From a virus (taxonomy: Duplodnaviria; Caudoviricetes): a stretch of DNA of 64,000 nt. The stretch lies in the IMG/VR virus record IMGVR_UViG_3300021399_000158, positions 2,920 through 66,919 of that record; one strand, given 5' to 3'. Made by a program: the position numbers and the translations under genes. Below the pieces are notes generated by a model, which was given only the letters and a program-made list of their open reading frames with translations, ran no database searches and was not told where the DNA came from. Positions 3,655-47,535 of this stretch are shown piece by piece; the first letter of the stretch is position 1; the number at the start of each line of letters is the position of its first letter.

Positions 3655-4212
3655 ATGAACAACGAACTTTACCATCATGGCGTCAAAGGAATGAGGTGGG
3701 GAGTAAGAAAGAAACGCCCAACTACAGGTCGTCATGTTCGAACAAGATCTGGTGAACAATTATATTTGCAGAAGCGTGAGACACCAACTTTTACAAAAGT
3801 ACTAGCCAAACATAATTCCAAGATACGAGACACCGTTAATCGAACAACGCAATATAACATCATGAAAGGTGATAAGCGAGTTGGCGATCTGGAATTATAT
3901 TCTGTGTCAAAAGACGAATTGAACGGCGTTTGGTTAGGTGTCAAAAATAATGAGCGTGGCCACGGATACGCGTCCGCTGTTTTAGAAGACACAATAAATT
4001 ATGCTAAACAGAATGGATATAAAAAAATGACTCTTGAAGTCCCAGGGCATTCTCCAGATGCTAGGCATATTTACGAAAAGCATGGCTTCGTTCCGACCAA
4101 GGTGCTTTCCACACAAGAAGATGATCCTGTTTGGAGTGGATTAACTGCTATGGAGTTGGATCTCACGCAAGTAAAGCACATCGATGACAACACATATAGA
4201 AAGTACAGGTGA
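3655..4212 (+). CDS. HHGVKGMRWG-tagged GNAT acetyltransferase
   Basis: NELYHHGVKGMRWGVRK, then GNAT motif A (GVKNNERGHGYASAVL) and LEV...ARHIYEKHGF. Confidence 0.8.
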   Translation: MNNELYHHGVKGMRWGVRKKRPTTGRHVRTRSGEQLYLQKRETPTFTKVLAKHNSKIRDTVNRTTQYNIMKGDKRVGDLELYSVSKDELNGVWLGVKNNERGHGYASAVLEDTINYAKQNGYKKMTLEVPGHSPDARHIYEKHGFVPTKVLSTQEDDPVWSGLTAMELDLTQVKHIDDNTYRKYR

Positions 4213-20199: not shown

Positions 20200-22659
20200 T
20201 TGAGCGTTAGATTTGACAAGACTATTAAGACTCTTGCACGGACGCTGCAAGATACCAACAAAAGAGGAACCAAACCTTACGAGACCGAAGCAACTGTCGT
20301 ACGAGTTGAAGGAGACACACTTTGGGTCCATATTGATGGAGGTGCAGATGAAACACCAGTTAAGAAAACCATTGCAGCATCCATTGGTGACACTGTCCAT
20401 ATTAAGATTGCCAATAAATCCGCTTACATTGTTGGCAATTACACCGCGCCACCAAGTGACTCAGAAGAGACACTGAAGATTGTAGAGGAGCAAATTAGTT
20501 CTGGAGCAATCAGAGGTAGAGATGGAGAGCCAGGAAAGGACGGAGCTCCTGGGCAAGACGGAGCATCTACTAAGAAGGTCGAGATTGTATATTGTCTGGC
20601 TCTTTCTGATGCGGCGGATGAAGATGGCGAACCTGAGGACATGATATCTGAAGACTGGCAGGCTGATATTCCGACGCTTGCTGATGTTCCGATAGAGGAA
20701 GGGGAAGAGACGATTGACGACCCGGAAGAAATAGCGGATATTCCCACAAATGGGTACGTGGATCTTGGGTATTATGTTTCCGAACTCAAGTCGTTTAAGG
20801 TAAACGGAACAGAATACACGGACTACACTCTCGAAACTCTTTCGGAAGAAGACGACGAAGGGGAAATGTATACCACTTCCATCGCTAGAATCAATCCCGA
20901 AACCTGGCCAAGCAGCGTCACAAACATTACATATTACTACGTAGAGGCTATTGACCCGTTGAGTATCTTCTATATCTGGATGCGCACCCTAACCTACACA
21001 ACTGACATGGAAGAGGGCGACGATCCGGAAGAAGGAGTCCCCTCAATCTACGGAACACTGACGGCAGAAGGCGGAACAGATTTCAAAGTCCGTACAATCA
21101 TTCGGGAAGAGAAATGGTTCTGCTTAGCTACTGCCGTAGCTCTGGGTCCCGGACAGAAGTTCGAGGATATTCAGAAGACTGAGTGGTCAACAACGATTCC
21201 GGATATTAAAGAGGCTAAGGACGAGTTCAGTATCGACTTATATTACTGGACTTATATCAAATATTATTACTCCGATGGCACAACAGCTGTCAGCCCGCCG
21301 TATTACGACTTCTCAGCTCAAATAGCTTACGAGGTTTCACAGGCAGAAACAAGCCAGGACAACCATTTCTGGTCGAATGCGAATGGCGCTTTCGTAGGTC
21401 ACTACGAGAACGACCCCGACAGAGACCACGTGGTTAAAGTAGTAGGAGAGGGCGTTCTGCTGTATAAAGATGGCGAACGTATGGCTTCGTTTACTGATTC
21501 CGGCGTTGCTTTCAGAGGCAAAGTTGGAGGCACTTGGACTGAATTAGCTAGGTATACGAATCTTGGCATTAGCTTTGCGCAAAATGTCGACTACACTATT
21601 GGCGACCCATCTGGTCAGTATATCAAGTGGGATTCCGCAAACAAGCGAATTGTTATTTGCGCTCAATCGCTTGTATATGGCTCGAATAATGTTGACTTGG
21701 CTACCGAATTAGATAGCGTTAAAACAAAGGCTAATACAGCTGATACGAATGCTAGTCAGGCTAAGAGCACTGCTAGTACTGCGAATACTAATGCTACTAG
21801 TGCATATAATAAAGCCGTTGCCGCTCAGAATGCTGCCGACAAAGCTAACAATCTTATTTATATGAGCGGTAGTGGATTATATGTCGTGAATAGTAGCGAC
21901 ACGAGCCAGAAAATTTTAATCGATTCGTACGGGATGAATGTGTACTATAGTGGCACATCAGTGGCACAATTCGGTGCGTCAACAAGAATAGGCTATAATA
22001 ATTCTTGGCATATATCGTTAGATAACACGAAACTTTCTTTTTATAATTCTTCTGGAAGTAGTATCGGATATATCGGTACTTGGCAGGATACTGAGGAGTA
22101 TCTTAGCGGTATTCAGATATCTTCGGCGCTCCCAGCGCTTTTTCTTACCTCGAATAAAGTTAAGATATTTTGTGGTTCAGATGATAACGCGTTTGTTGTT
22201 CGATGTAATAACAAAAAAATGATAGAGTATAACTATTCCTCCAGCGCACCGTATAACAGACTTCGTTTCCCGGAAGCATACCACACTGGTTCAGCTTCCG
22301 GCAAACAAGCTTACATTAATGAATATGGTTGGCTGAATGCTTCAAGTTCTAAAAGAGAAATTAAGACTGATATAACAAGCGAGTTTAATAGCGAAAATAA
22401 TCCACGTAATCTATACAATGTGCCGGTTCGTCAGTTTAAGTATAAAGAAGGTTATATCGATCCTGACGACTATAATTATGGAAAAGATGTCGTTGGAATA
22501 ATAGCCGAGGAAATTGATGAAGCTTATCCGGTTGGCGCTTATCATGAAATGGACGGTACACCTGGGGATTGGGATATTCGTACTGTTGTCCCCGCCATGC
22601 TCAAACTTATCCAGGAGCAGCATGAGGAAATCGAAGCTATTAAAGCACAACTCAATTAG
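20200..22659 (+). CDS. Tail fibre/spike with C-terminal intramolecular chaperone (peptidase S74-like)
   Basis: Short collagen-like GRDGEPGKDGAPGQDG, alanine-rich coiled coil, C-terminal SSKREIKTDI...VRQFKYK...GIIAEEIDEAYP...LIQEQHEEIEAIK; TTG start after GGAGG. Confidence 0.8.
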   Translation: MSVRFDKTIKTLARTLQDTNKRGTKPYETEATVVRVEGDTLWVHIDGGADETPVKKTIAASIGDTVHIKIANKSAYIVGNYTAPPSDSEETLKIVEEQISSGAIRGRDGEPGKDGAPGQDGASTKKVEIVYCLALSDAADEDGEPEDMISEDWQADIPTLADVPIEEGEETIDDPEEIADIPTNGYVDLGYYVSELKSFKVNGTEYTDYTLETLSEEDDEGEMYTTSIARINPETWPSSVTNITYYYVEAIDPLSIFYIWMRTLTYTTDMEEGDDPEEGVPSIYGTLTAEGGTDFKVRTIIREEKWFCLATAVALGPGQKFEDIQKTEWSTTIPDIKEAKDEFSIDLYYWTYIKYYYSDGTTAVSPPYYDFSAQIAYEVSQAETSQDNHFWSNANGAFVGHYENDPDRDHVVKVVGEGVLLYKDGERMASFTDSGVAFRGKVGGTWTELARYTNLGISFAQNVDYTIGDPSGQYIKWDSANKRIVICAQSLVYGSNNVDLATELDSVKTKANTADTNASQAKSTASTANTNATSAYNKAVAAQNAADKANNLIYMSGSGLYVVNSSDTSQKILIDSYGMNVYYSGTSVAQFGASTRIGYNNSWHISLDNTKLSFYNSSGSSIGYIGTWQDTEEYLSGIQISSALPALFLTSNKVKIFCGSDDNAFVVRCNNKKMIEYNYSSSAPYNRLRFPEAYHTGSASGKQAYINEYGWLNASSSKREIKTDITSEFNSENNPRNLYNVPVRQFKYKEGYIDPDDYNYGKDVVGIIAEEIDEAYPVGAYHEMDGTPGDWDIRTVVPAMLKLIQEQHEEIEAIKAQLN

Positions 22660-23117: not shown

Positions 23118-23645
23118 ATGTCTACGCTACATTTCGACAAACAAGGCAGTTTCTCGACCGCTGTAGACCTAACGATGGTGTTAAACGAATCGGTCAACAA
23201 CTTGGTTCCTATAGCTCAAAAGGTCGGATACGAATTCGATGGTTGGTTCTGCACTTACACCTCTGGTGGTCACGTTGAGGAGAAAGTCGTACGAGTTTAC
23301 AGCAGCGACAAACCTATGTGGGAAGCCAAAGACCGGCAGGTAATCGTTTACGAGGACAATACATGGTGGGAAGCCGAGTATATTCCTCAATCAGACACTC
23401 CTGTAGTTGTCGAGGATATTAAGGTATTCGATTCGAAGGGCAGGGCAGTAAAATCTGACGTATTCTGGACAGATGACTACCCTAATGGTGTCTATAAGAA
23501 TCGTAAGAACATCACAGTATATCCTGTATGGCACGAGGTTCCATTCGTCAATGAATATTTCGACCAGGAAAATGAGAAATGCCACTTATATGCAGAAGTT
23601 GATGGCGTAATGACAAGAGTAGAAGTCTTTAGAGGAGGTAGCTAA
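23118..23645 (+). CDS. Protein with a split InlB B-repeat (Listeria-Bacteroides repeat)-like domain
   Basis: KVGYEFDGWF...SGG and DVFWTDD...NITVYPVW halves of the repeat. Confidence 0.5.
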   Translation: MSTLHFDKQGSFSTAVDLTMVLNESVNNLVPIAQKVGYEFDGWFCTYTSGGHVEEKVVRVYSSDKPMWEAKDRQVIVYEDNTWWEAEYIPQSDTPVVVEDIKVFDSKGRAVKSDVFWTDDYPNGVYKNRKNITVYPVWHEVPFVNEYFDQENEKCHLYAEVDGVMTRVEVFRGGS

Positions 23646-23905
23646 TGGGAGTTAATAAGATCACCTATGGTAACGAAACTCTGATAGACCTTACTAATGA
23701 CACTGTTACCGCTGATACGCTGGTGAACGGCAAGACAGCTCACAACGCCAATGGTGATATTGTTGAGGGTACTCTTGTTCCGGTCGACTTGTCAAAGGAT
23801 ACTGTCACAGCTTCTACGTTATCACAGGGTATCACCGCCCATGATAAGGATGGCACCCCGATAACTGGTACTTTAGTACCGGTCGTAGATGCAGTATGGG
23901 GGTGA
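23645..23905 (+). CDS. Small tail-fibre-associated repeat protein
   Basis: Two internal repeats DLTNDTVTADTLVNGKTAHNANG / DLSKDTVTASTLSQGITAHDKDG. Confidence 0.6.
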   Translation: MGVNKITYGNETLIDLTNDTVTADTLVNGKTAHNANGDIVEGTLVPVDLSKDTVTASTLSQGITAHDKDGTPITGTLVPVVDAVWG

Positions 23906-23909
23906 TATT

Positions 23910-25283
23910 TTGAGTTTAACAGCGAGCGAGTTTATTGCTCTAAAAACAAAAGTAAAGAATGAAATGGCGAGGAGGAAGTACTATGGCTCACTTGAGACAT
24001 TTGCTTCCTCTTCTTACGATTTCCAGACTACGCCTGTCCAAGGACAGCGTATATTAGCCGAACAAGGTCAGAAAGTTATTGACCTGGCACTCAAGATCGC
24101 AGATGTCGATGGTTACGCATTAGTAGAGCAGGGTGATAAGCTGCCTGATTCAATGACGGCTCTGTCGAACAAGCTCGATCAGTGGGCTAATGAGTCTTTG
24201 ACCGGCTCTAGCTCCTGCAGGGGAGCATGCACAGGCTTATGCACTACCGCGTGCTCCGGAGCTTGTAAGAATGGATGCAAGGGCTGCCAGGGATGCGGAT
24301 CAGCATGCCAGGGCGGATGCGGTAGTAACTGCACGAGTTCGTGCTCCGCACAATGTACGACTGGATGCGGAACTAACTGCTCAAGCTCGTGTGCTACTAG
24401 CTGCGGCGGTTGTGGCAATTCTTGCGGCACTGCTTGCACCAGTGGCTGTACCGGATGTCAGGGGTGCTCATCATGTGCTGGATCTTGTAAGGACGGATGT
24501 AACGATTCGTGCTCCGGAAACTGCGGAACTGGGTGCACCGGTTCTTGTCATGATGCATGCACTTCAAACTGCAAATCCGATTGCGCTGGGGGATGCAATA
24601 CCACATGCTCAAGCGGTTGTAAAAGCGGCAGTTGCAAGAATGGATGTATCGGTTGCGACACTTATTGCAAGGACGCTTGCGCAGGATGCCATACCACATG
24701 CACTGGTGTGTGCAGTAAAGGCGGTTGCAAATCGGTATGCAAAGGTAGTGAATGCAAGGGCGGATGCTCCGGGCATTGCAAAGGAAACTGTACTGGCGAT
24801 TGTTATGGTTGCTGTAGTAACAACTGCGCTGGTAAATGTGAAGGCGGCTGCAATGGCTGCTCTACGGACTGTGGCGGGGGATGTAAGGCGACTTGCTCTA
24901 CAAGCTGTGGAAAATGCGACGGTCGCTGTTCCAAAACTTGCGGGGCTTCGTGCGGGAATTGCACAAGAACTTGCACCGCTACTTGCGGAGGCAGTTGCTC
25001 AGATACGTGTGGATCTAACTGTACAGGAAACTGTCGTTCTGGATGCTCGGGCTGTCAAGGATGTCAAGGATGTGGCGGAACTTGCGGAAGTGTTTGTAGA
25101 GACGCTTGTACAGCGAATTGCTCTGCTGCGTGCCGAACCGGATGTGACAGCTCATGCACTGGCTGCAGCACGCAATGCTCAAACACTTGTCTGACAACAT
25201 GCTCAAACACATGCTCAACAGGCTGCAGTGGCGGGTGCTTTGGTTCGTGCTCCGGCGGAGCCATGGCGCTTAAGAAGAAATAG
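23910..25283 (+). CDS. Giant Cys-rich CXXX-repeat protein, putative radical SAM target
   Basis: About 100-aa Cys-free N-terminal domain, then about 91 Cys (hand count) in CxxxC/CxxC periodicity with G/S/T fill; TTG start at 23910 after GGGGGTGA. Confidence 0.85.
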   Translation: MSLTASEFIALKTKVKNEMARRKYYGSLETFASSSYDFQTTPVQGQRILAEQGQKVIDLALKIADVDGYALVEQGDKLPDSMTALSNKLDQWANESLTGSSSCRGACTGLCTTACSGACKNGCKGCQGCGSACQGGCGSNCTSSCSAQCTTGCGTNCSSSCATSCGGCGNSCGTACTSGCTGCQGCSSCAGSCKDGCNDSCSGNCGTGCTGSCHDACTSNCKSDCAGGCNTTCSSGCKSGSCKNGCIGCDTYCKDACAGCHTTCTGVCSKGGCKSVCKGSECKGGCSGHCKGNCTGDCYGCCSNNCAGKCEGGCNGCSTDCGGGCKATCSTSCGKCDGRCSKTCGASCGNCTRTCTATCGGSCSDTCGSNCTGNCRSGCSGCQGCQGCGGTCGSVCRDACTANCSAACRTGCDSSCTGCSTQCSNTCLTTCSNTCSTGCSGGCFGSCSGGAMALKKK

Positions 25284-25298
25284 AAAGGAGATCAATCA

Positions 25299-25625
25299 AT
25301 GGAGAAGTTTACATTTGATTTAACAGAAGAGCAGATCACATATTTGCAGAGACTTGGAAACGAAGTCGACACTAAAGTTTTTCTCATCGATAGAATGATG
25401 GCAAATCATGCAACTGATACAGATCTCAGTCTGTTTGAATCCAAGCCTTTTAAACATTTCATGAGCGAGTATGAGAAATCTTATGCTATGTGGGAAATGG
25501 CTAAAAGCGAATTCGAGAAAACTGTGGTTAATCCGATCGTGGCCGAGAAGTATGGTCCGAATGCGTTATATTCGTGGATGATCAACGACTTCGAAGAAGG
25601 TACATGCGAGGTGACGATTCAGTGA
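25299..25625 (+). CDS. CXXX-repeat modification system accessory protein (putative)
   Basis: 108 aa between target and rSAM; LTEEQ N-terminus and WMINDFEEGTCEV end resemble, from memory, the small CXXX-system associated family; not searched. Confidence 0.5.
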   Translation: MEKFTFDLTEEQITYLQRLGNEVDTKVFLIDRMMANHATDTDLSLFESKPFKHFMSEYEKSYAMWEMAKSEFEKTVVNPIVAEKYGPNALYSWMINDFEEGTCEVTIQ

Positions 25626-26941
25626 AGCGCAGCAAGAAAAGTTCTGAGCAGTATCAGGACATGGTAGCGCGTTTATATCCCGAATTAAAAGGAAAAGACA
25701 ACTTCCCATGTATGGAAATCACATTCCAGGTCACTGACGCTTGTTCTCTTGCCTGCACATACTGTTATCAGATCGATAAGGGGCATAAGGTTATGCCTTT
25801 CGAGACAGCAAAGACCTTTATCGACAATCTCTTCGATGGTTTTTACAAAGGTTACGTTTCCGAAGAGGAGAAACCTTTCCTCGTTCTCGATTTCATTGGC
25901 GGTGAACCATTTCTTCAGCCTAAGTTGATCGAACAGATCTGCGACTATTTCTTTGATACGGCGATTGAACGCATGTCGCCGTGGGCAGAGCGTACAATGA
26001 TATCTGTATGCTCAAACGGAGTGGCATGGTTCGATCCTGACGTCCAGCATTTTGTTAACAAATACCGCGAACGGTTGTCTATATCGGTAACGATTGACGG
26101 CAACAAGGAACTTCACGACTCCTGCAGGATATTTCCTGATGGTAGACCCAGCTATGATCTGGCTGTAGCAGCGGCTAAAGACTGGATGGATCGTGGCGGG
26201 GAGATGGGCAGCAAGATTACTATCTGTCCTGAAAACCTTCGATATATGAACGACGCCATCCTTCATATGATCGAACTCGGTTACGACGAGATCAACGCGA
26301 ATGTCGTTTATGAAGAAGGATGGACGATCGAGCACGCTAAGGAATACTACCAGAAACTCAAGGAGATTGCCAATCACTTCATTGACAACGATTTGGTCAG
26401 TGATATTTACCTTTCGTTGTTCACAGAGATTTTGGGGTATCCAAAACCAGAGGATGATGACAAAACCTGGTGCGGTGGAGTAGGGAACGCCATGCTCTCT
26501 ATCGATCCGGATGGTAAGTTCTTCCCTTGTATTCGCTACATGCATTCCTCACTTGGCGACGACCAGCCGCCTCTGTCGATCGGAGATGTATGGACAGGTA
26601 TCGGCAAGAATGAGGAAGACGCAGCATGGATCAAATGCCTCGGATGTATCACAAGACGATCAGAGAGTACGGACGAGTGCTTCTATTGCCCGATCGCAGA
26701 AGGGTGCTCCGAATGCTCCGCATACAACTACCAGGTCAATGGCACACCTGATTCGCGATGCACATTCATTTGCGACATGCACAAAGCCAGAGTCATGGCT
26801 AACTCATATTTCTGGAACAAGTGGTATCGCAAGACCTGTCAGGACAAGCGATTCGCGCTGCATATTCCGGATGACTGGGCTTTGGAAATTATTGATGAGA
26901 AAGAACTTGAGATGCTTAAAGAATTATCTAAGGAGAATTAA
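25622..26941 (+). CDS. Radical SAM/SPASM peptide maturase
   Basis: CxxxCxxC (CSLACTYC), FIGGEP, and SPASM Cys set WCGG...FPC...CFYC...CSEC...C; GTG start overlapping previous TGA. Confidence 0.92.
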   Translation: MKRSKKSSEQYQDMVARLYPELKGKDNFPCMEITFQVTDACSLACTYCYQIDKGHKVMPFETAKTFIDNLFDGFYKGYVSEEEKPFLVLDFIGGEPFLQPKLIEQICDYFFDTAIERMSPWAERTMISVCSNGVAWFDPDVQHFVNKYRERLSISVTIDGNKELHDSCRIFPDGRPSYDLAVAAAKDWMDRGGEMGSKITICPENLRYMNDAILHMIELGYDEINANVVYEEGWTIEHAKEYYQKLKEIANHFIDNDLVSDIYLSLFTEILGYPKPEDDDKTWCGGVGNAMLSIDPDGKFFPCIRYMHSSLGDDQPPLSIGDVWTGIGKNEEDAAWIKCLGCITRRSESTDECFYCPIAEGCSECSAYNYQVNGTPDSRCTFICDMHKARVMANSYFWNKWYRKTCQDKRFALHIPDDWALEIIDEKELEMLKELSKEN

Positions 26942-26945
26942 ATAA

Positions 26946-29900
26946 ATGTCTAAAGAAGTAAGAATGCTTAATGAGATCAGCAAAGCTTTGGGCGGTGCTG
27001 AGCACGTACAGAGAAAAGATATTCTGGAAGAGATTGCAGGGCTGTCCGACTCCTTAGGTCCGGAGCAGCATATTCTGCCTCCCAGTCAGGTTGATCCGGA
27101 AACAGGTTTGCCTACGGTAGAAGACCCGGAAGAAGGCGCGTTTTATCTGGTCCCCTCAGGTGAGGAGGAGCCGAATCTTTATAACGAGTATATTTGGACC
27201 GGCGACGGTTGGGAGCTGTTTGGGTCTGGTGGTGGCGGTAAAGTTGATACAGATCGCGTCGTTGAAATAACTACGGAAGATTTTATCGACAGCGCTGACG
27301 AAAATGGGAACATTAAAGAGTTAGATGTTTTGGCGACCGCGATTAGAAGAAAATGGTCTAACAATACTCTGGGGGTCACCGCTGATGGCATTTATTGTAT
27401 TTTGTCGCCAACGAGTCGCGTTATTGAGCCTCTTAAAATAAGAATGCTTGATAGTAGTAACGTAAGACGCGATTTATTAGATTCCTCCGCTCAAGAAACT
27501 ATCTTAGCCTTTGTATACGTATACTTTATGGGGCAATATGTTACAGCCCCTATGGGAGTAGCATGGACTCGGGTGTTCGATATTTATTCGTCAGCGATAT
27601 TCAGCGGTGTTAATAGAGACTACGACACTAGCAAATATTCAAGTTATATAATTAATTGGGAGTACGAATCAAGAAACTATAAGGTATTACCAATTGTTTG
27701 CAATGGAACGGCGGACGTGCGTTTGGTTGGCAAACTTAAAAACATTGACGATCGAGGAACTGGGGTTGTTGAGGGGAACATTGTGTCAAACGCCGCTTCT
27801 GGAGAATACGCCCATGCTGAAGGCAATAATACAAAAGCTTCAGGTGATGATTCCCACGCGGAAGGGATTGACGTGAAAGCTTCTGGCAATTACTCTCACG
27901 CTGAAGGTGGTCTCACAACCGCTTCTAGTGATTATTCCCACGCGGAAGGCAATCAATCAACTGCTTCTGGTAGTTGCTCTCATGCAGAAGGAACTGCCAC
28001 GATTGCTTATGGTCGTTTATCTCATGCAGAAGGAAATAGCACAAAAGCATACGGCGAAGCTTCTCATGCTGAGGGTTATGGCGGAGTAACTGGAGAGGAT
28101 GGCAATAGTGGAACCGGGTTTTATGCTCACGCAGAAGGCTACCAGACAACAGCTTCCGCTAACCGCTCTCACGCAGAAGGATATAAAACAATCGCTTCTA
28201 GCGATAGTTCCCATTCAGAAGGTTATCAGACAACCGCTTCTGGAGCATACGCCCATGCTGAAGGCAATAATACAAGAGCTTCTCGTGATAGTTCTCATTC
28301 AGAAGGATACAACACAACCGCATCGGGCAAATACTCTCACGCAGAAGGTAACGATGCGACCGCATCTGGCGAAAGCTCTCACGCAGAAGGGGGCGCAACC
28401 GCATCGGGCAAATACTCTCACGCAGAAGGTAACGATGCGACCGCTTCCGGAATTAATTCTCACGCAGAAGGATATAACACAAAAGCCCAAGGCGATTATT
28501 CTCACGCAGAAGGTAACAATGCAACCGCATCGGGCAAATACTCTCACGCAGAAGGATGGGGGAAAACATACGGCGAAGCTTCTCACGCCGAAGGTTTGGG
28601 GGTAACAGGAGTTTCTGACAATCCTGATAAAGGCGGATATTCTCATGCAGAAGGATATACCACAAAAGCCCAAGGCAACTATTCTCACGCGGAAGGAAGG
28701 GAAACAAAGGCGATTGGCGAGGAATCTCATGCAGAAGGTGGTCTCACAACCGCTTCTGGTCTACGTTCCCATTCGGAAGGATTTAGTACAACCGCTTCTG
28801 GTGATTATTCTCACGCAGAAGGCGACCAATCAACGGCTTCTGGTGATGATTCCCACGCTGAAGGACGGGGCACGAACGCTTCTGGCATTCAGTCTCACGC
28901 GGAAGGCGCAAAAGTAAGTGATACCGATATACAATATAAAGGAGAAACAACTACATTAGCTCCTGCAGTAGCAGCAGGCGCCCATTCGCATATTGAAGGC
29001 CAGGACACGAGAACCGAAACGACAGCGTCAAATGCGCACGCTGAGGGGTATCGTACATATGCTAAAAATGCTAATGCTCACGCAGAAGGTTCTACCACAA
29101 CAGCTTCTGGCGAAAGTTCCCATGCGGAAGGCTTCTTTACAAAAGCTTCTGGCGATAGTTCCCATGCGGAAGGCGTTACCACAACAGCTTCTGGCAATAA
29201 TTCTCACGCAGAAGGTAGCTCTACAGAAGCCTCTGGTGCAAAGTCTCATGCTGAAGGGTTTGGGACAATTGCTTCTGGCGAAGATTCTCATGCCGAGGGA
29301 CATGCTCCTCGAGCTTCTGGCGATAGTTCCCATGCGGAAGGTAGCAGCACGACAGCTTCTGGATATAATTCGCATGCGGAAGGTAACCATACAATCGCTA
29401 ACCACAAATCCCAGCATGTTCATGGCGAATACAATATTTCCGACCCTTCAACGGCTGAGGCCACAGAACGTGGCAATTATGTTGAAATCGTCGGTAATGG
29501 TACAGCAGACAACGCTCGTTCCAACGCCCGTACACTTGACTGGTCAGGTAATGAACGGCTGGCTGGTAAGCTGACTGTCGGGGCTGATCCTACAGAGGAT
29601 ATGGATGTTGCGACTAAGCAGTATGTGGATGAGAATGCTGGCGGGGGCGGGCAGTTACCTCTTATTAAGGTTACTCCGCATTACGGTCCAACATCATATT
29701 ATGAAATCGATTGGACTTATGAACAACTAACAGATTATTTTAGTTCGCTCGACGATCCTACTTTTATTAGTTGCCTTGTGTGGGTTACAGCTGGACCAGA
29801 AAACTATTCGATCGGGGAAATTTTAAGAAATGTAAATATGTCTGATAATACTACTACATTTGTTATCCGATATATTGAAGGCGCTACTATGTTGTGGCCG

Positions 29901-30200
29901 CTAAAGACTGGCATAGACCAACTTACAATACATGAAGACGGATCTATTGTAAAAGACGGATATAGCGCAAAAAAAACAATAACATTAACTGCTTCTGCTT
30001 GGTCCTCAAACACCCAGACAGTATCAGTAGCAGGCGTAAAAGCCACCAATACAGTCCTCGTAACCCCAGCTCCAGCAAGTGTAAAAGACTGGGATGCAGC
30101 GTATGTTATCTGCACAGCGCAGGGCGCAAACTCACTCACCTTCACATGCGACACAGTCCCGGAGAATGATATTTCCGTTAATGTAGTAATTCTCGGCTAA
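26946..30200 (+). CDS. Tail fibre with YadA/Hia head-like (SHAEG) beta-roll repeats
   Basis: 36 H[AS I]EG repeats of about 14 aa (hand count), neck motif YVEIVGNG...RSNARTLDWSGN...DVATKQYVDE. Confidence 0.8.
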   Translation: MSKEVRMLNEISKALGGAEHVQRKDILEEIAGLSDSLGPEQHILPPSQVDPETGLPTVEDPEEGAFYLVPSGEEEPNLYNEYIWTGDGWELFGSGGGGKVDTDRVVEITTEDFIDSADENGNIKELDVLATAIRRKWSNNTLGVTADGIYCILSPTSRVIEPLKIRMLDSSNVRRDLLDSSAQETILAFVYVYFMGQYVTAPMGVAWTRVFDIYSSAIFSGVNRDYDTSKYSSYIINWEYESRNYKVLPIVCNGTADVRLVGKLKNIDDRGTGVVEGNIVSNAASGEYAHAEGNNTKASGDDSHAEGIDVKASGNYSHAEGGLTTASSDYSHAEGNQSTASGSCSHAEGTATIAYGRLSHAEGNSTKAYGEASHAEGYGGVTGEDGNSGTGFYAHAEGYQTTASANRSHAEGYKTIASSDSSHSEGYQTTASGAYAHAEGNNTRASRDSSHSEGYNTTASGKYSHAEGNDATASGESSHAEGGATASGKYSHAEGNDATASGINSHAEGYNTKAQGDYSHAEGNNATASGKYSHAEGWGKTYGEASHAEGLGVTGVSDNPDKGGYSHAEGYTTKAQGNYSHAEGRETKAIGEESHAEGGLTTASGLRSHSEGFSTTASGDYSHAEGDQSTASGDDSHAEGRGTNASGIQSHAEGAKVSDTDIQYKGETTTLAPAVAAGAHSHIEGQDTRTETTASNAHAEGYRTYAKNANAHAEGSTTTASGESSHAEGFFTKASGDSSHAEGVTTTASGNNSHAEGSSTEASGAKSHAEGFGTIASGEDSHAEGHAPRASGDSSHAEGSSTTASGYNSHAEGNHTIANHKSQHVHGEYNISDPSTAEATERGNYVEIVGNGTADNARSNARTLDWSGNERLAGKLTVGADPTEDMDVATKQYVDENAGGGGQLPLIKVTPHYGPTSYYEIDWTYEQLTDYFSSLDDPTFISCLVWVTAGPENYSIGEILRNVNMSDNTTTFVIRYIEGATMLWPLKTGIDQLTIHEDGSIVKDGYSAKKTITLTASAWSSNTQTVSVAGVKATNTVLVTPAPASVKDWDAAYVICTAQGANSLTFTCDTVPENDISVNVVILG
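27790..29420 (+). repeat. Imperfect 42-bp coding tandem repeats
   Basis: Recurrent tctcacgcagaagg units; near-identical blocks starting about 28317 and 28397. Confidence 0.85.
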
Positions 30201-30997: not shown

Positions 30998-31351
30998 TTG
31001 AAATACTTAATCCAACACAAAAAAGAATTCGCTATATCAGTGGCCGCCTTTATCATGGCGGTCATTAATCTTTATAAGGCAATCAGATCCCATGATATTT
31101 CTGAGGATCTGATCGTGGCTGTTCTGGTCACTGCTACAACGGTCCTGGCATGGTATTACAACATGCCAACTTCCGAAGAGAACACCAAGCATACAGGTCT
31201 TATGAGGCTGGAAAAGGCTTCTAAGAAAGACGGTTATATCGGAGAGAACTTCTTCGATGATATGGATGATGAGGAAGAGGACGATGACTTCTTTGAGCAG
31301 TGTGAGGAGCAGCCCGAGGATGCTAACGACAAGGAAGTGATCGACGAATGA
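30998..31351 (+). CDS. Holin-like membrane protein
   Basis: Two hydrophobic segments and an acidic tail, immediately upstream of endolysin; TTG start. Confidence 0.55.
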   Translation: MKYLIQHKKEFAISVAAFIMAVINLYKAIRSHDISEDLIVAVLVTATTVLAWYYNMPTSEENTKHTGLMRLEKASKKDGYIGENFFDDMDDEEEDDDFFEQCEEQPEDANDKEVIDE

Positions 31352-32388
31352 GTTACAAGACATATAAACAGTACGACAGCCGGTGGGGGAGTAAGAACTA
31401 TAACGGCTCCTCCACCATGGCTGCAGCCGGATGCGGTCCGACAGCCTGTGCTACGATCATTTCCAACCACGATCCGAGAGTCACTCCTCTGAAAACAATG
31501 AAATACATGCAGGAGCACGGCTATGCTATACGCAATAACGGTACAGCATGGGCTGGCATTCCTGCCTGTATGAAGTGGGGCGGACTGAATGAGGTCAAAG
31601 AGATCAAGACAATGCCTGATCTCTGGTCCTATATGAAAAAGAAACACTCCTGCGGAATCATCCGATTTGAAGCTGGAACGGTTGGCGGGGTCACATGGAC
31701 AACAGCTGGCCACTTTGTAGCCTTTACTGCTATGAAGATCAAAGACGGCAAGCATTATCTCTGGACTCGTGATCCTGGCGGCAGAAACCACGATGGATGG
31801 TATTGCTACGAAACTCAGATGATCGGACTCGTAGGAAACGTTTGGGTCGGCATATCCAATCCGCCTAAGACAAAGCGGGAAAAGAAGCTTGAGCGTATCG
31901 AGGAAGTTGCGATCAAATGCTCATGGCCTAAGGGTACCACAAGGAGCAAGATGGGATATCCTGAGGGTCACGCTAAGAAAGCGTACAAGCAGGCCCTGAA
32001 CAAGGCATATCCTAACAGATCCGGCTGGCGCGATCAGACACACGACGGAGCATCCTGCGATGTGGCGGTTGGAACATTTGTACGTGCATCCGGAGTAGAC
32101 AAGCGGTTCCCACGGGGCTGCGATGATATTCCGGATTACATGGAGTCTAAGCACGGCAAAGAGAAGTGGATGAATCTTAAGACTCATAAGATGAAAAAGA
32201 TCCCTGACGGTGCAATTATATTTCAGATCTATGACTCTGGAGCTAAGCACGTCATGGTTAAAGTAAGAGGCAGATTTGTTGCCAATGCACACTACTGCAA
32301 AAAGACATTCCCTGTTATTGAGAGCTATAAGAAGATCGTAAAGAGTAAGTCCGCCTGCAGAGTATTTAAGGTTTATGTACCTAGATAG
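31348..32388 (+). CDS. Endolysin: peptidase C39-like domain plus second CHAP/NlpC-like domain
   Basis: YKQYDSRW...GCGPTACA...GHFVAF; second Cys/His pair ASCDVAVG...KHVMV. Confidence 0.75.
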   Translation: MSYKTYKQYDSRWGSKNYNGSSTMAAAGCGPTACATIISNHDPRVTPLKTMKYMQEHGYAIRNNGTAWAGIPACMKWGGLNEVKEIKTMPDLWSYMKKKHSCGIIRFEAGTVGGVTWTTAGHFVAFTAMKIKDGKHYLWTRDPGGRNHDGWYCYETQMIGLVGNVWVGISNPPKTKREKKLERIEEVAIKCSWPKGTTRSKMGYPEGHAKKAYKQALNKAYPNRSGWRDQTHDGASCDVAVGTFVRASGVDKRFPRGCDDIPDYMESKHGKEKWMNLKTHKMKKIPDGAIIFQIYDSGAKHVMVKVRGRFVANAHYCKKTFPVIESYKKIVKSKSACRVFKVYVPR

Positions 32389-32396
32389 GAGGTATT

Positions 32397-32708
32397 ATGG
32401 GACTTCAGGACACACTTATAGTAGCTGTTATCGGGGTGTTCGCGGCGGCATTTGGCGGTAGCGGATTCTGGACATGGCTCAGCACCATTTCTCGCAAGAT
32501 GACGCCGTTCGAACGACTTACCATGGCATACGCACGTGACCGGCTTAACTATCTGTCCAAACGGCACATCCACAACGGTTATATTCCAGACGACGAGTAC
32601 GAGTCTTTTAAAGAAATGGGAGAAGCGTACATCGACGCCAAGGGTAACAGCCGTGTAAAGAAGTTGTTTGAGGACGCTATGAAACTGCCGGTCAAGTATG
32701 ATGATTAG
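32397..32708 (+). CDS. Single-TM holin-like protein
   Basis: N-terminal TM (LIVAVIGVFAAAFGGSGFWTW), then RLNYLSKRHIHNGYI...Y...KGN; follows endolysin. Confidence 0.55.
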   Translation: MGLQDTLIVAVIGVFAAAFGGSGFWTWLSTISRKMTPFERLTMAYARDRLNYLSKRHIHNGYIPDDEYESFKEMGEAYIDAKGNSRVKKLFEDAMKLPVKYDD

Positions 32709-46375: not shown

Positions 46376-47044
46376 ATGAAAATAATCAAACCGAGCTACG
46401 AGATCCTGACACCAATATCTGATGGTGGGATCAAAGAACTGCAGCATATTGAGCGGATCGCCAGGGTATGTTATAAGTCAGAAGACAAAATTTCCCCGGA
46501 TGGTGAATCCGCTAAACAATTGATAAAGATGCTAATTAACCGGGAGCATGAAGCCATGTTGGAGCATGGGAGCATCTCGGTTTTATTTATTTGCGATCGT
46601 GGAGTCTCTCATGAGCTTGTACGTCATCGTATGGCTAGCTTCGCTCAGGAGAGCACGAGATATTGTAATTACAGTAAAGGTAAGTTTGGTGGTGAACTGA
46701 CATTCATCAAACCGCCATTTCTTAAACACGAGGAACCATGGCATTTCCACTGTTATCACGCTGAGCAGTCATATTTGAGAATGCTCGAAGAAGGGTATAC
46801 GCCGCAAGAGGCAAGAGACGTGCTCCCAAACAGTCTTAAAACAGAAATCGTAATGACCGCCAACTATCGTGAGTGGCGGCATTTCTTTAAATTGCGGTGT
46901 GCTGAAGCGGCTCACCCGCAGATGAGAGAACTGACAAGACCGTTGCTTAAAGAACTGCACGAGAAGCTGCCAGTTATATTTGATGACATCTATGATGAGT
47001 TCGATAAAAACCCGTTCTTTCACTGGGAGGAGGAAGAGAAATGA
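46376..47044 (+). CDS. thyX: Flavin-dependent thymidylate synthase
   Basis: ThyX signature SHELVRHRMASFAQESTRY, HEAMLEH, EARDVLPNSLKT, FFKLRC. Confidence 0.93.
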   Translation: MKIIKPSYEILTPISDGGIKELQHIERIARVCYKSEDKISPDGESAKQLIKMLINREHEAMLEHGSISVLFICDRGVSHELVRHRMASFAQESTRYCNYSKGKFGGELTFIKPPFLKHEEPWHFHCYHAEQSYLRMLEEGYTPQEARDVLPNSLKTEIVMTANYREWRHFFKLRCAEAAHPQMRELTRPLLKELHEKLPVIFDDIYDEFDKNPFFHWEEEEK

Positions 47045-47535
47045 AAGTTGTAACATCACCTGATAAAGCAGTCACAAACACCGGTTGGAGAGTTTTTCTT
47101 GCTGGTGGTATAACCTATTGTTCTAACTGGCAGGAAAAAGTTATAAATGAACTACTGCATCTTTCAGATTACTATAATCTAGATAACGTAACCGTATTTA
47201 ACCCTAGAAGAGACGATTTCGACTTTACTGATAAGAACGCTGAAATCGAGCAGATCAAATGGGAACACGAATGGCTAACGCGATGCGATATCTTCTCCTG
47301 TTTCTTTGAAGCAAGTGAGAGCATTCAACCAATCTCCCTATATGAACTTGGCAGGTATGGCAAAAGCAAAAATTATGATCCGGTCATCACAGTGCAAAAA
47401 GGATATTTGCGAGAGCGTGACGTGCTGATTCAGACTGCTGTTGATAAGCTCCCAGTAAATTATATCTCAGGAGAGGATGCTATTTTGCAGCATGCCAGAA
47501 GCATTGCGCAAAGAATACAGGAGGCAAAAGGATGA
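47041..47535 (+). CDS. Nucleoside 2-deoxyribosyltransferase-like protein
   Basis: VFLAGGI...WQ...VFNPRR...QIKWE...CD...ISLYELG. Confidence 0.75.
   Translation: MKVVTSPDKAVTNTGWRVFLAGGITYCSNWQEKVINELLHLSDYYNLDNVTVFNPRRDDFDFTDKNAEIEQIKWEHEWLTRCDIFSCFFEASESIQPISLYELGRYGKSKNYDPVITVQKGYLRERDVLIQTAVDKLPVNYISGEDAILQHARSIAQRIQEAKG

Follow-up and report, generated by a model that had tools for sequence, protein, structure and literature searches.

A phage cysteine-ladder protein as a candidate protein-sized substrate of an adjacent CXXX-repeat-type radical SAM maturase

The locus described here raises the question of why a gut phage should encode, between two fibre-type genes, a large protein built mainly from closely spaced cysteines, and what the enzyme encoded beside it may do to that protein. 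The window (the whole stretch of 64,000 nucleotides that was analysed, positions 2,920 to 66,919 of IMG/VR record IMGVR_UViG_3300021399_000158; Duplodnaviria, Caudoviricetes) is nearly the whole of a 66.9-kb virus record rated complete by CheckV. The protein in question, hereafter the target, is encoded on the + strand at 23889..25283 and comprises 464 amino acids (aa) when read from ATG 23889 and 457 aa when read from TTG 23910. The TTG is more likely to be the true start; it is preceded by a ribosome-binding site, GGGGGTGA, and homologues start with M-A-L-T-A-S-E-F at its position. Residue numbers below follow the ATG. The reading frame is kept in more than 100 related loci. Residues 1-109 are free of cysteine, and residues 110-454 (24216..25250, + strand) form a ladder of 345 aa with 91 cysteines, followed by the C-terminus SGGAMALKKK. 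A preliminary description of the locus had reported this anatomy, with about 100 cysteine-free residues, about 350 aa of CxxxC and CxxC spacings and the same C-terminal sequence, and our analysis confirmed it. The target gene is followed by those of a companion protein and a radical S-adenosylmethionine (SAM) enzyme, and we refer to the three genes as the cassette. From the anatomy, family assignments, co-occurrence and genomic context of the cassette, we infer a docking role for the N-terminal domain (N-domain), a cross-link chemistry and a virion location. The explanation that we favour, to which we give an even chance, is that the target may be a protein-sized substrate of the adjacent CXXX-repeat-type maturase, docked by its N-domain and cross-linked into a rod on the phage particle.

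The enzyme is a radical SAM/SPASM maturase (25622..26941, + strand), the GTG start codon of which overlaps the stop codon of the companion gene (GTGA). It matched TIGR04115 (“radical SAM peptide maturase, CXXX-repeat target family”) at 449.7 bits over model positions 3-359, against a cut-off of 350. The radical SAM motif C41x3C45x2C48 is intact, and the SPASM auxiliary-cluster cysteines are kept (ten conserved C-terminal cysteines). The next-best family matches were PapB (E 6e-45), the SCIFF maturase and QhpD (E 8e-25). Among enzymes that have been characterised or structurally solved, the nearest are PapB, which acts with PapA (freyrasin, a ranthipeptide), and CteB; both belong to the SPASM radical SAM group and form cysteine thioethers in periodic cysteine motifs. 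The phage maturase scored well below the cut-offs of the PapB equivalog NF047865 (154 bits against 340) and of the SCIFF maturase family TIGR03974 (98.8 bits against 425). Its nearest solved structure was CteB (5wgg, E 1.5e-14), and the alignment begins at CteB residue 100; therefore the phage maturase lacks an N-terminal recognition domain, a further difference from the SCIFF maturase. Between target and maturase lies the gene of the companion, a 108-aa protein (25299..25625, + strand) that opens sixteen bases past the target stop codon, occupies the same position in nearly all loci and is a candidate leader-binding helper. The companion is not a TIGR04116 protein: that family gave no match in the whole phage (E <= 10), nor at the cassette in five related genomes, and hhalign comparison of a companion profile with a TIGR04116-like protein returned a probability of 1.3%, indicating no relation. 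Searches with the companion against Pfam and the PDB gave no match, and the ESM Atlas nothing usable. Of the related families, TIGR04117 and TIGR04119 gave scores under their cut-offs.

The three genes are tightly linked. A pattern scan for the maturase matched 142 IMG/VR contigs, of which 80 were fetched, and the order N-domain ladder protein, companion, maturase was found in every fetched viral locus with sufficient upstream flank. The same triad occurs in 21 loci from genomes or metagenome-assembled genomes of Lachnospiraceae and other Clostridia where, as far as the surroundings were readable, it follows genes for baseplate and fibres and precedes those for holin and lysin. The reverse test, starting from the N-domain, found the maturase downstream in 60 of 64 viral loci; the remaining four end less than 1 kb past the target. 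The other late proteins of the window had no BLAST match in the bacterial loci. A query of 50,697 phage records by blastn and tblastn, made with the region and with the N-domain, gave no match. The flanking tail genes show no detectable similarity between lineages, and therefore the cassette moves as a unit between unrelated phage backbones. TIGR04115 passed its cut-off in two of 401 sampled Bacillota genomes, a patchy distribution that fits carriage on mobile elements. Within the window, the cassette genes abut or overlap with no excess of promoter- or terminator-like sites, which places them within the late operon.

The N-domain (23910..24215, + strand; about 102-109 aa) contains helices predicted at residues 12-28, 36-39, 57-70 and 89-100 and is 45-58% identical to its homologues. 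A profile was built from four phage copies and scored against 1.84 billion cluster representatives. At E <= 0.001 it retrieved 383 of them, with the match N-terminal in every case; among the 96 listed proteins that reach 130 aa or more, 87 continue from the N-domain into a cysteine ladder. Before this exhaustive search, a word-indexed search for proteins of near lengths, with the N-domain as query, had given nothing. AlphaFold (AF2) run on a 73-sequence alignment returned helices joined by ordered loops with a predicted local distance difference test score (pLDDT) of 85.8 and a predicted template modelling score (pTM) of 0.79; with a 4-sequence alignment the model was poor (pLDDT 52). Searches of Pfam, NCBIfam and PHROGs returned no match, also when the thresholds were permissive (E <= 10 for Pfam and NCBIfam), and a PDB profile search gave nothing. 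Foldseek of the model against the PDB yielded no match with E < 2.8, and the VIA wide fold search stopped at Z 5.5 with generic helical domains, within noise for helical models. Among the predicted viral structures of BFVD, the sole good matches were three uncultured-phage proteins of the same family. The N-domain is thus, as far as the modelled structure can be relied on, a real folded domain family that is in no domain library searched. The folded appearance noted in the preliminary description is borne out by this model and by the breadth of the family. Its further remarks, that no signal peptide, double-glycine leader, transporter or dedicated protease was evident, also stood. The target has no signal peptide or membrane segment (top Kyte-Doolittle 19-residue mean 0.81), the junction with the ladder lacks a GG motif, and no transporter was found among the late-region genes scanned. 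The profile search with the N-terminal 100 or so residues alone, proposed there as a check, was run, and the N-domain matched neither a leader family of peptides that are ribosomally synthesised and post-translationally modified (RiPPs), such as NHLP and Nif11, nor an export signal. A weak partial N-domain match elsewhere in the window (47008-47535, 15 bits) was taken as chance.

Cysteine makes up 26% of the ladder, as against 1.4% in the other long + strand open reading frames (ORFs) of the phage. Successive cysteines are mainly in CxxxC and partly in CxxC arrangement (spacing of four residues 70 times, three 16 times, five three times and one once), and the residues between them are mainly Gly, Ser and Thr. 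The TIGR04114 repeat model, which has 18 positions, scored 20.7 bits with neighbouring repeats taken together, just at its threshold of 20. The DNA of the ladder is not a recent tandem array. The ladder opens with a conserved motif, SSSCRGACTGLC (24207..24242, + strand); the pattern S[SG]CRG.C.GLC is near-universal among 88 unique targets, and C110 and C114 are almost invariant. The residue four positions after a ladder cysteine is the next cysteine in 70 of 90 spacings, and the Cys-X3-Asp/Glu acceptor motif is absent, which sets the target apart from the substrates of the PapB and CteB systems, as does its size of about 460 aa. Since Asp and Glu are few (14 in 345 aa), Cys-Asp links of the PapB type cannot be the rule. 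A composition so rich in cysteine, with small residues making up the remainder, could also suggest a metal- or iron-sulfur-binding polymer, comparable to metallothionein and left uncross-linked. We consider this highly improbable, as the ladder has no CxC spacing and CC only once, unlike metallothioneins, and matches no metallothionein family in Pfam. Moreover, its obligate partner is a SPASM maturase, the characterised kin of which modify cysteines in peptides and proteins.

The closest precedent for the cassette is the CXXX-repeat radical SAM system of NCBIfam (TIGR04115/TIGR04114/TIGR04116), with which it shares the maturase, the repeat target and the three-gene layout. This system has been catalogued from genomes, and we found no paper on it in the literature searched. 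The phage version differs in that its helper is not TIGR04116, a folded N-domain of 105 aa replaces a short leader, the target has 91 cysteines against about 12, transporter genes are lacking and the genes stand in a tail-fibre module. The cellular form is represented here by one system (G312; L186:8164-14716), since no second example turned up in the search of the class to which G312 belongs. Its 725-aa maturase has a cysteine-containing C-terminal extension of about 280 aa and is followed by a TIGR04116-like gene, the precursor and three genes of ATP-binding cassette (ABC) transporter type. The TIGR04116 match is a 101-aa protein (37.9 bits), and the precursor, of about 80 aa, has a short leader and 12 cysteines. 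Judged against this single cellular example, the phage version appears to have exchanged the short leader for a folded domain, taken another helper, multiplied the core and dropped the exporter. The statement in the preliminary description that the target is far larger than a RiPP precursor holds for this comparison. Within the phage family the size is ordinary. A comparison of repeat number among related phages, also suggested at that stage, gave 12-145 cysteines in 102 phage targets (median 62), with the first cysteine at residue 101-112 in most, so that the target of the window, with 91, lies in the upper part of a size continuum and is no outlier.

Leader and helper types thus switch together: G312 combines a short leader with a TIGR04116-type helper, and the phages combine the N-domain with a different helper. 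This joint switching, the constant presence of companion and maturase beside the N-domain and the lack of a recognition domain in the maturase suggest that the N-domain acts as a leader-like docking module with the companion as its reader; on such comparative grounds, we rate the docking role at roughly one half. Under the explanation that we favour, the target would be made late in infection, along with the tail genes. Its N-domain would be retained in the product, and the companion, by holding the N-domain, would substitute for the recognition domain absent from the maturase. The maturase may then work along the ladder from the conserved CRGACTGLC start and convert the thiols of its cysteines to cross-links that are irreversible; thioethers to residues nearby are the most likely type. 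The Gly/Ser/Thr-rich chain would thereby stiffen to a rod able to withstand proteases and a reducing environment. Most likely, this rod would remain part of the particle, forming a fibre or whisker in the tail region, and in relatives it could be a stalk bearing a binding domain.

The latter proposal derives from relatives in which the target carries additional domains. In one clade (L015 type), identity is 98-100% for the maturase, 93-100% for the N-domain and 74-98% for the ladder. The same proteins end in a cysteine-free C-terminal domain of 180 aa that occurs in three types, 54-62% alike, which assort independently of the ladder. By analogy, such mosaicism is a pattern typical of receptor-binding tips; Pfam, PDB-sequence and Atlas searches gave no lead for this domain. 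Another relative has an insert of 190 aa within the N-domain with a sub-threshold match to the carbohydrate-binding family CBM_4_9 (E 4.6e-4). Because relatives bear such swappable tips or a carbohydrate-binding-like insert, and because proteins of 1460-1800 aa close with a ladder of this kind, a structural stalk is favoured over a diffusible product or a metal sponge. Of the roles that the preliminary description had offered for the ladder, a rigid cross-linked fibre therefore fares best, given the thioether-forming kin of the maturase and the extra domains of the relatives, and the metallothionein-like or iron-sulfur idea is disfavoured. Of the two offered for the N-domain, tail attachment and enzyme recognition, the constant partners maturase and companion lean the evidence to the second.

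Several observations weigh against this explanation. The variable positions of the ladder show no conserved acceptor (12 Asp and 2 Glu in 345 aa), and no resemblance of the companion to known recognition elements could be detected. In several lineages there is a second ladder ORF without an N-domain, often in the same frame past one or two stop codons. Proteins of 1460-1800 aa that carry 400-670 aa of the same ladder C-terminally also lack the N-domain, and yet their repeats open with a similar motif, GCxAACMGLC. Because of these second ORFs and long proteins, the ladder could do without the N-domain in cis, and recognition could in fact rest on the CRGxCxGLC motif. The N-domain would then be a particle-attachment or oligomerisation module, and what the maturase recognises would be the ladder, with the CRGACTGLC start as one candidate site. 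That ladder ORFs without the N-domain adjoin the same enzymes agrees with this alternative, as does the tolerance of the N-domain for a 190-aa insert of sugar-binding type, which a structural hub might show. Against it, no constant partner in the virion is visible, as the neighbouring tail genes are unrelated between lineages while maturase and companion are constant; nor does the N-domain fold find a match among solved fibre or baseplate proteins. We therefore regard an attachment module as somewhat unlikely and retain docking to the maturase as the preferred function of the N-domain.

The virion location meets objections of its own. The target of the window has no tip domain and matches no tail-category family; its sole PHROG match, phrog_6085 (residues 392-457), is of unknown function. 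The slot between tail-fibre and lysis genes is, in addition, a classic place for cargo genes. All long genes of the phage are on the + strand, in the order terminase, fusion of head protease and capsid, tape measure (1684 aa), fibre-type block and probable lysis cassette. Upstream of the target is a fibre-type protein of 819 aa (20200..22659, + strand) with a C-terminal chaperone-of-endosialidase domain (Peptidase_S74 and Alanine_zipper matches, both below the Pfam cut-offs). Downstream of the maturase is a fibre-type protein of 1084 aa (26946..30200, + strand) with a YadA_head repeat (27.8 bits, cut-off 25) and a match to phrog_25468 (E 6e-116). The probable lysis cassette (30998..32708, + strand) consists of two small membrane proteins and, between them, a 346-aa protein (31348-32388, + strand) with an N-terminal Peptidase_C39_2-like domain (24.8 bits against a cut-off of 24). 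The C39_2-like domain is the sole peptidase-type match in the late region. The protein was considered as a leader protease and rejected; because two small membrane proteins flank its gene, at the end of the late operon, it is probably an endolysin.

Such a setting allows the target to be read as cargo, that is, as a giant RiPP-like product with no structural role, bacteriocin-like, signalling or host-modulating, that is freed at lysis. The catalogue lists the family of the enzyme under peptide maturases, the cellular relative resembles a classical exported-peptide cluster, and the prophage cassettes often stand directly before holin and lysin. The absence of tail-category matches agrees with this reading as well. 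Against it, the cassette has no exporter or leader protease nearby and no promoter or terminator signals in excess. In the window, fibre genes lie on both sides of it. Fusion of the ladder to swappable or sugar-binding-type domains, and its presence in 1000-aa proteins, would be unexpected for a diffusible peptide. We consider a freed product unlikely and continue to prefer a cross-linked rod on the particle.

Other known systems offer partial parallels. QhpD, which acts on QhpC in the maturation of quinohemoprotein amine dehydrogenase, is a radical SAM enzyme of the SPASM type; the substrate in which it forms cross-links is a subunit of a protein, as opposed to a natural product of peptide nature. 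The phage maturase scored 87 against the QhpD cut-off of 453, QhpC differs from the phage target in being small and having three links, and the QhpD/QhpC pair lacks a phage context. A phage-borne ladder is found in SPN3US-like jumbo phages of Salmonella and Erwinia, where a protein of 134 aa with 20 cysteines is encoded 1.2 kb from SPASM-type radical SAM genes. The enzyme of these phages is only about 25% identical and is of the phrog_1802 type, paired with a second radical SAM gene. Their leader, of 50 aa, is unrelated to the N-domain (no match to the N-domain profile) and is conserved in 62 phage records from Salmonella, Erwinia, Escherichia and Proteus, in which the ORF is often unannotated or hypothetical. 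In Enterobacteria phage SEGD1 (KU726251; L187:1497-2123), the 134-aa CxxxC-repeat ORF is accompanied by another, shorter one, both 1.2 kb upstream of two radical SAM genes.

The type of system to which the cassette belongs was already known from its NCBIfam catalogue entry. What the present analysis adds is the N-domain as a distinct, foldable and obligately linked family and the size continuum of the targets. A broader reading, which we advance tentatively and rate below an even chance, is that phages of gut anaerobes build a part of their particle by radical SAM chemistry. The product would be a serially thioether-stapled, redox-proof fibre stalk, and a folded leader domain and a helper would replace the short leader and the recognition element. 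As part of the same tentative reading, chemistry known so far from peptide natural products would yield a stapled rod of up to hundreds of residues. If this is true, enzymes that tailor peptide antibiotics would also cross-link a large viral protein post-translationally; such virion chemistry would be of a new kind, with capsid chainmail and the isopeptide bonds of pili as parallels in spirit. It would suit particles that are assembled in a reducing cytoplasm and live in the anoxic gut, where disulfides are unreliable. The maturase would then be a natural processive enzyme installing tens to more than 100 cross-links. The N-domain would stand as a new type of leader-like domain, about 105 aa long and with 383 sequence clusters, and the ladder could serve protein engineering as a programmable stiff linker. 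The system is common, given the 142 IMG/VR contigs from one pattern scan and the Lachnospiraceae prophages, and testable models exist in the form of a prophage-type locus in an isolate genome (Anaerolentibacter hominis CSJ-1, L095) and the distant analogues in SPN3US-like phages.

The relatives also vary in the ladder and its junctions. We considered whether the ladder closes with a conserved aromatic cap and dropped the idea, as 15 of the 88 targets only have one. In L015, L025, L026, L038, L041 and others, a run of 4-8 G occurs at the junction between ladder and C-terminal domain (around 4085-4110). With a run of G4, G6 or G8, the tip domain falls out of frame, and two further loci have a TGA at or just past the junction. 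The run could reflect phase variation or slippage that controls tip fusion, or a homopolymer assembly error. Split targets were seen at L060:3650-4340, L054:3640-4311, L100:4800-5662 and L102:4380-5620. In these, an N-domain protein with 17-18 cysteines ends and, a few codons on, a ladder ORF of 41-96 cysteines without an N-domain follows, in the same frame in three lineages; the second ladder ORF of L100 has its own GAGGAGGTG site and ATG. The precomputed Pfam annotation shows Listeria-Bacteroides repeats in some of the long ladder proteins. The non-cysteine parts of the long proteins had no PHROG match, they were not found in IMG/VR and a metagenome scan returned fragments only; these proteins are thus no more than candidate tail fibres.

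The gene content of the cassette is variable as well. Some phages have two paralogous N-domain ladder proteins (L011:2231-5335, which equals L051 and L189; L071/L072:2681-4585; L194:6998-11948), placed either side by side as a tandem pair (434 with 557 aa; 273 with 316 aa) or with the maturase between them. In a 334-aa protein from a JGI metagenome (P0022), N-domain, ladder and companion are apparently fused in one frame, and at L101:5328-5987 the companion is duplicated in tandem within a single ORF of 219 aa. Small ORFs of 95-130 aa, often with the start MK-I-LK-G, adjoin the cassette in many loci (L010:7334-7687, L101:7344-7634, L099:7319-7636, L011:5348-5632, L093:5317-5619 and L060:4323-4721) and have no counterpart in the window. 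Two of these ORFs had no PHROG match. In the window itself, an ORF of 86 aa (23645-23905) lies just 5′ of the target; it is built from two copies of a motif like DTVTA-TL--G-TAH---G--I-GTLVP and matches internal stretches of large PHROG families of unknown function.

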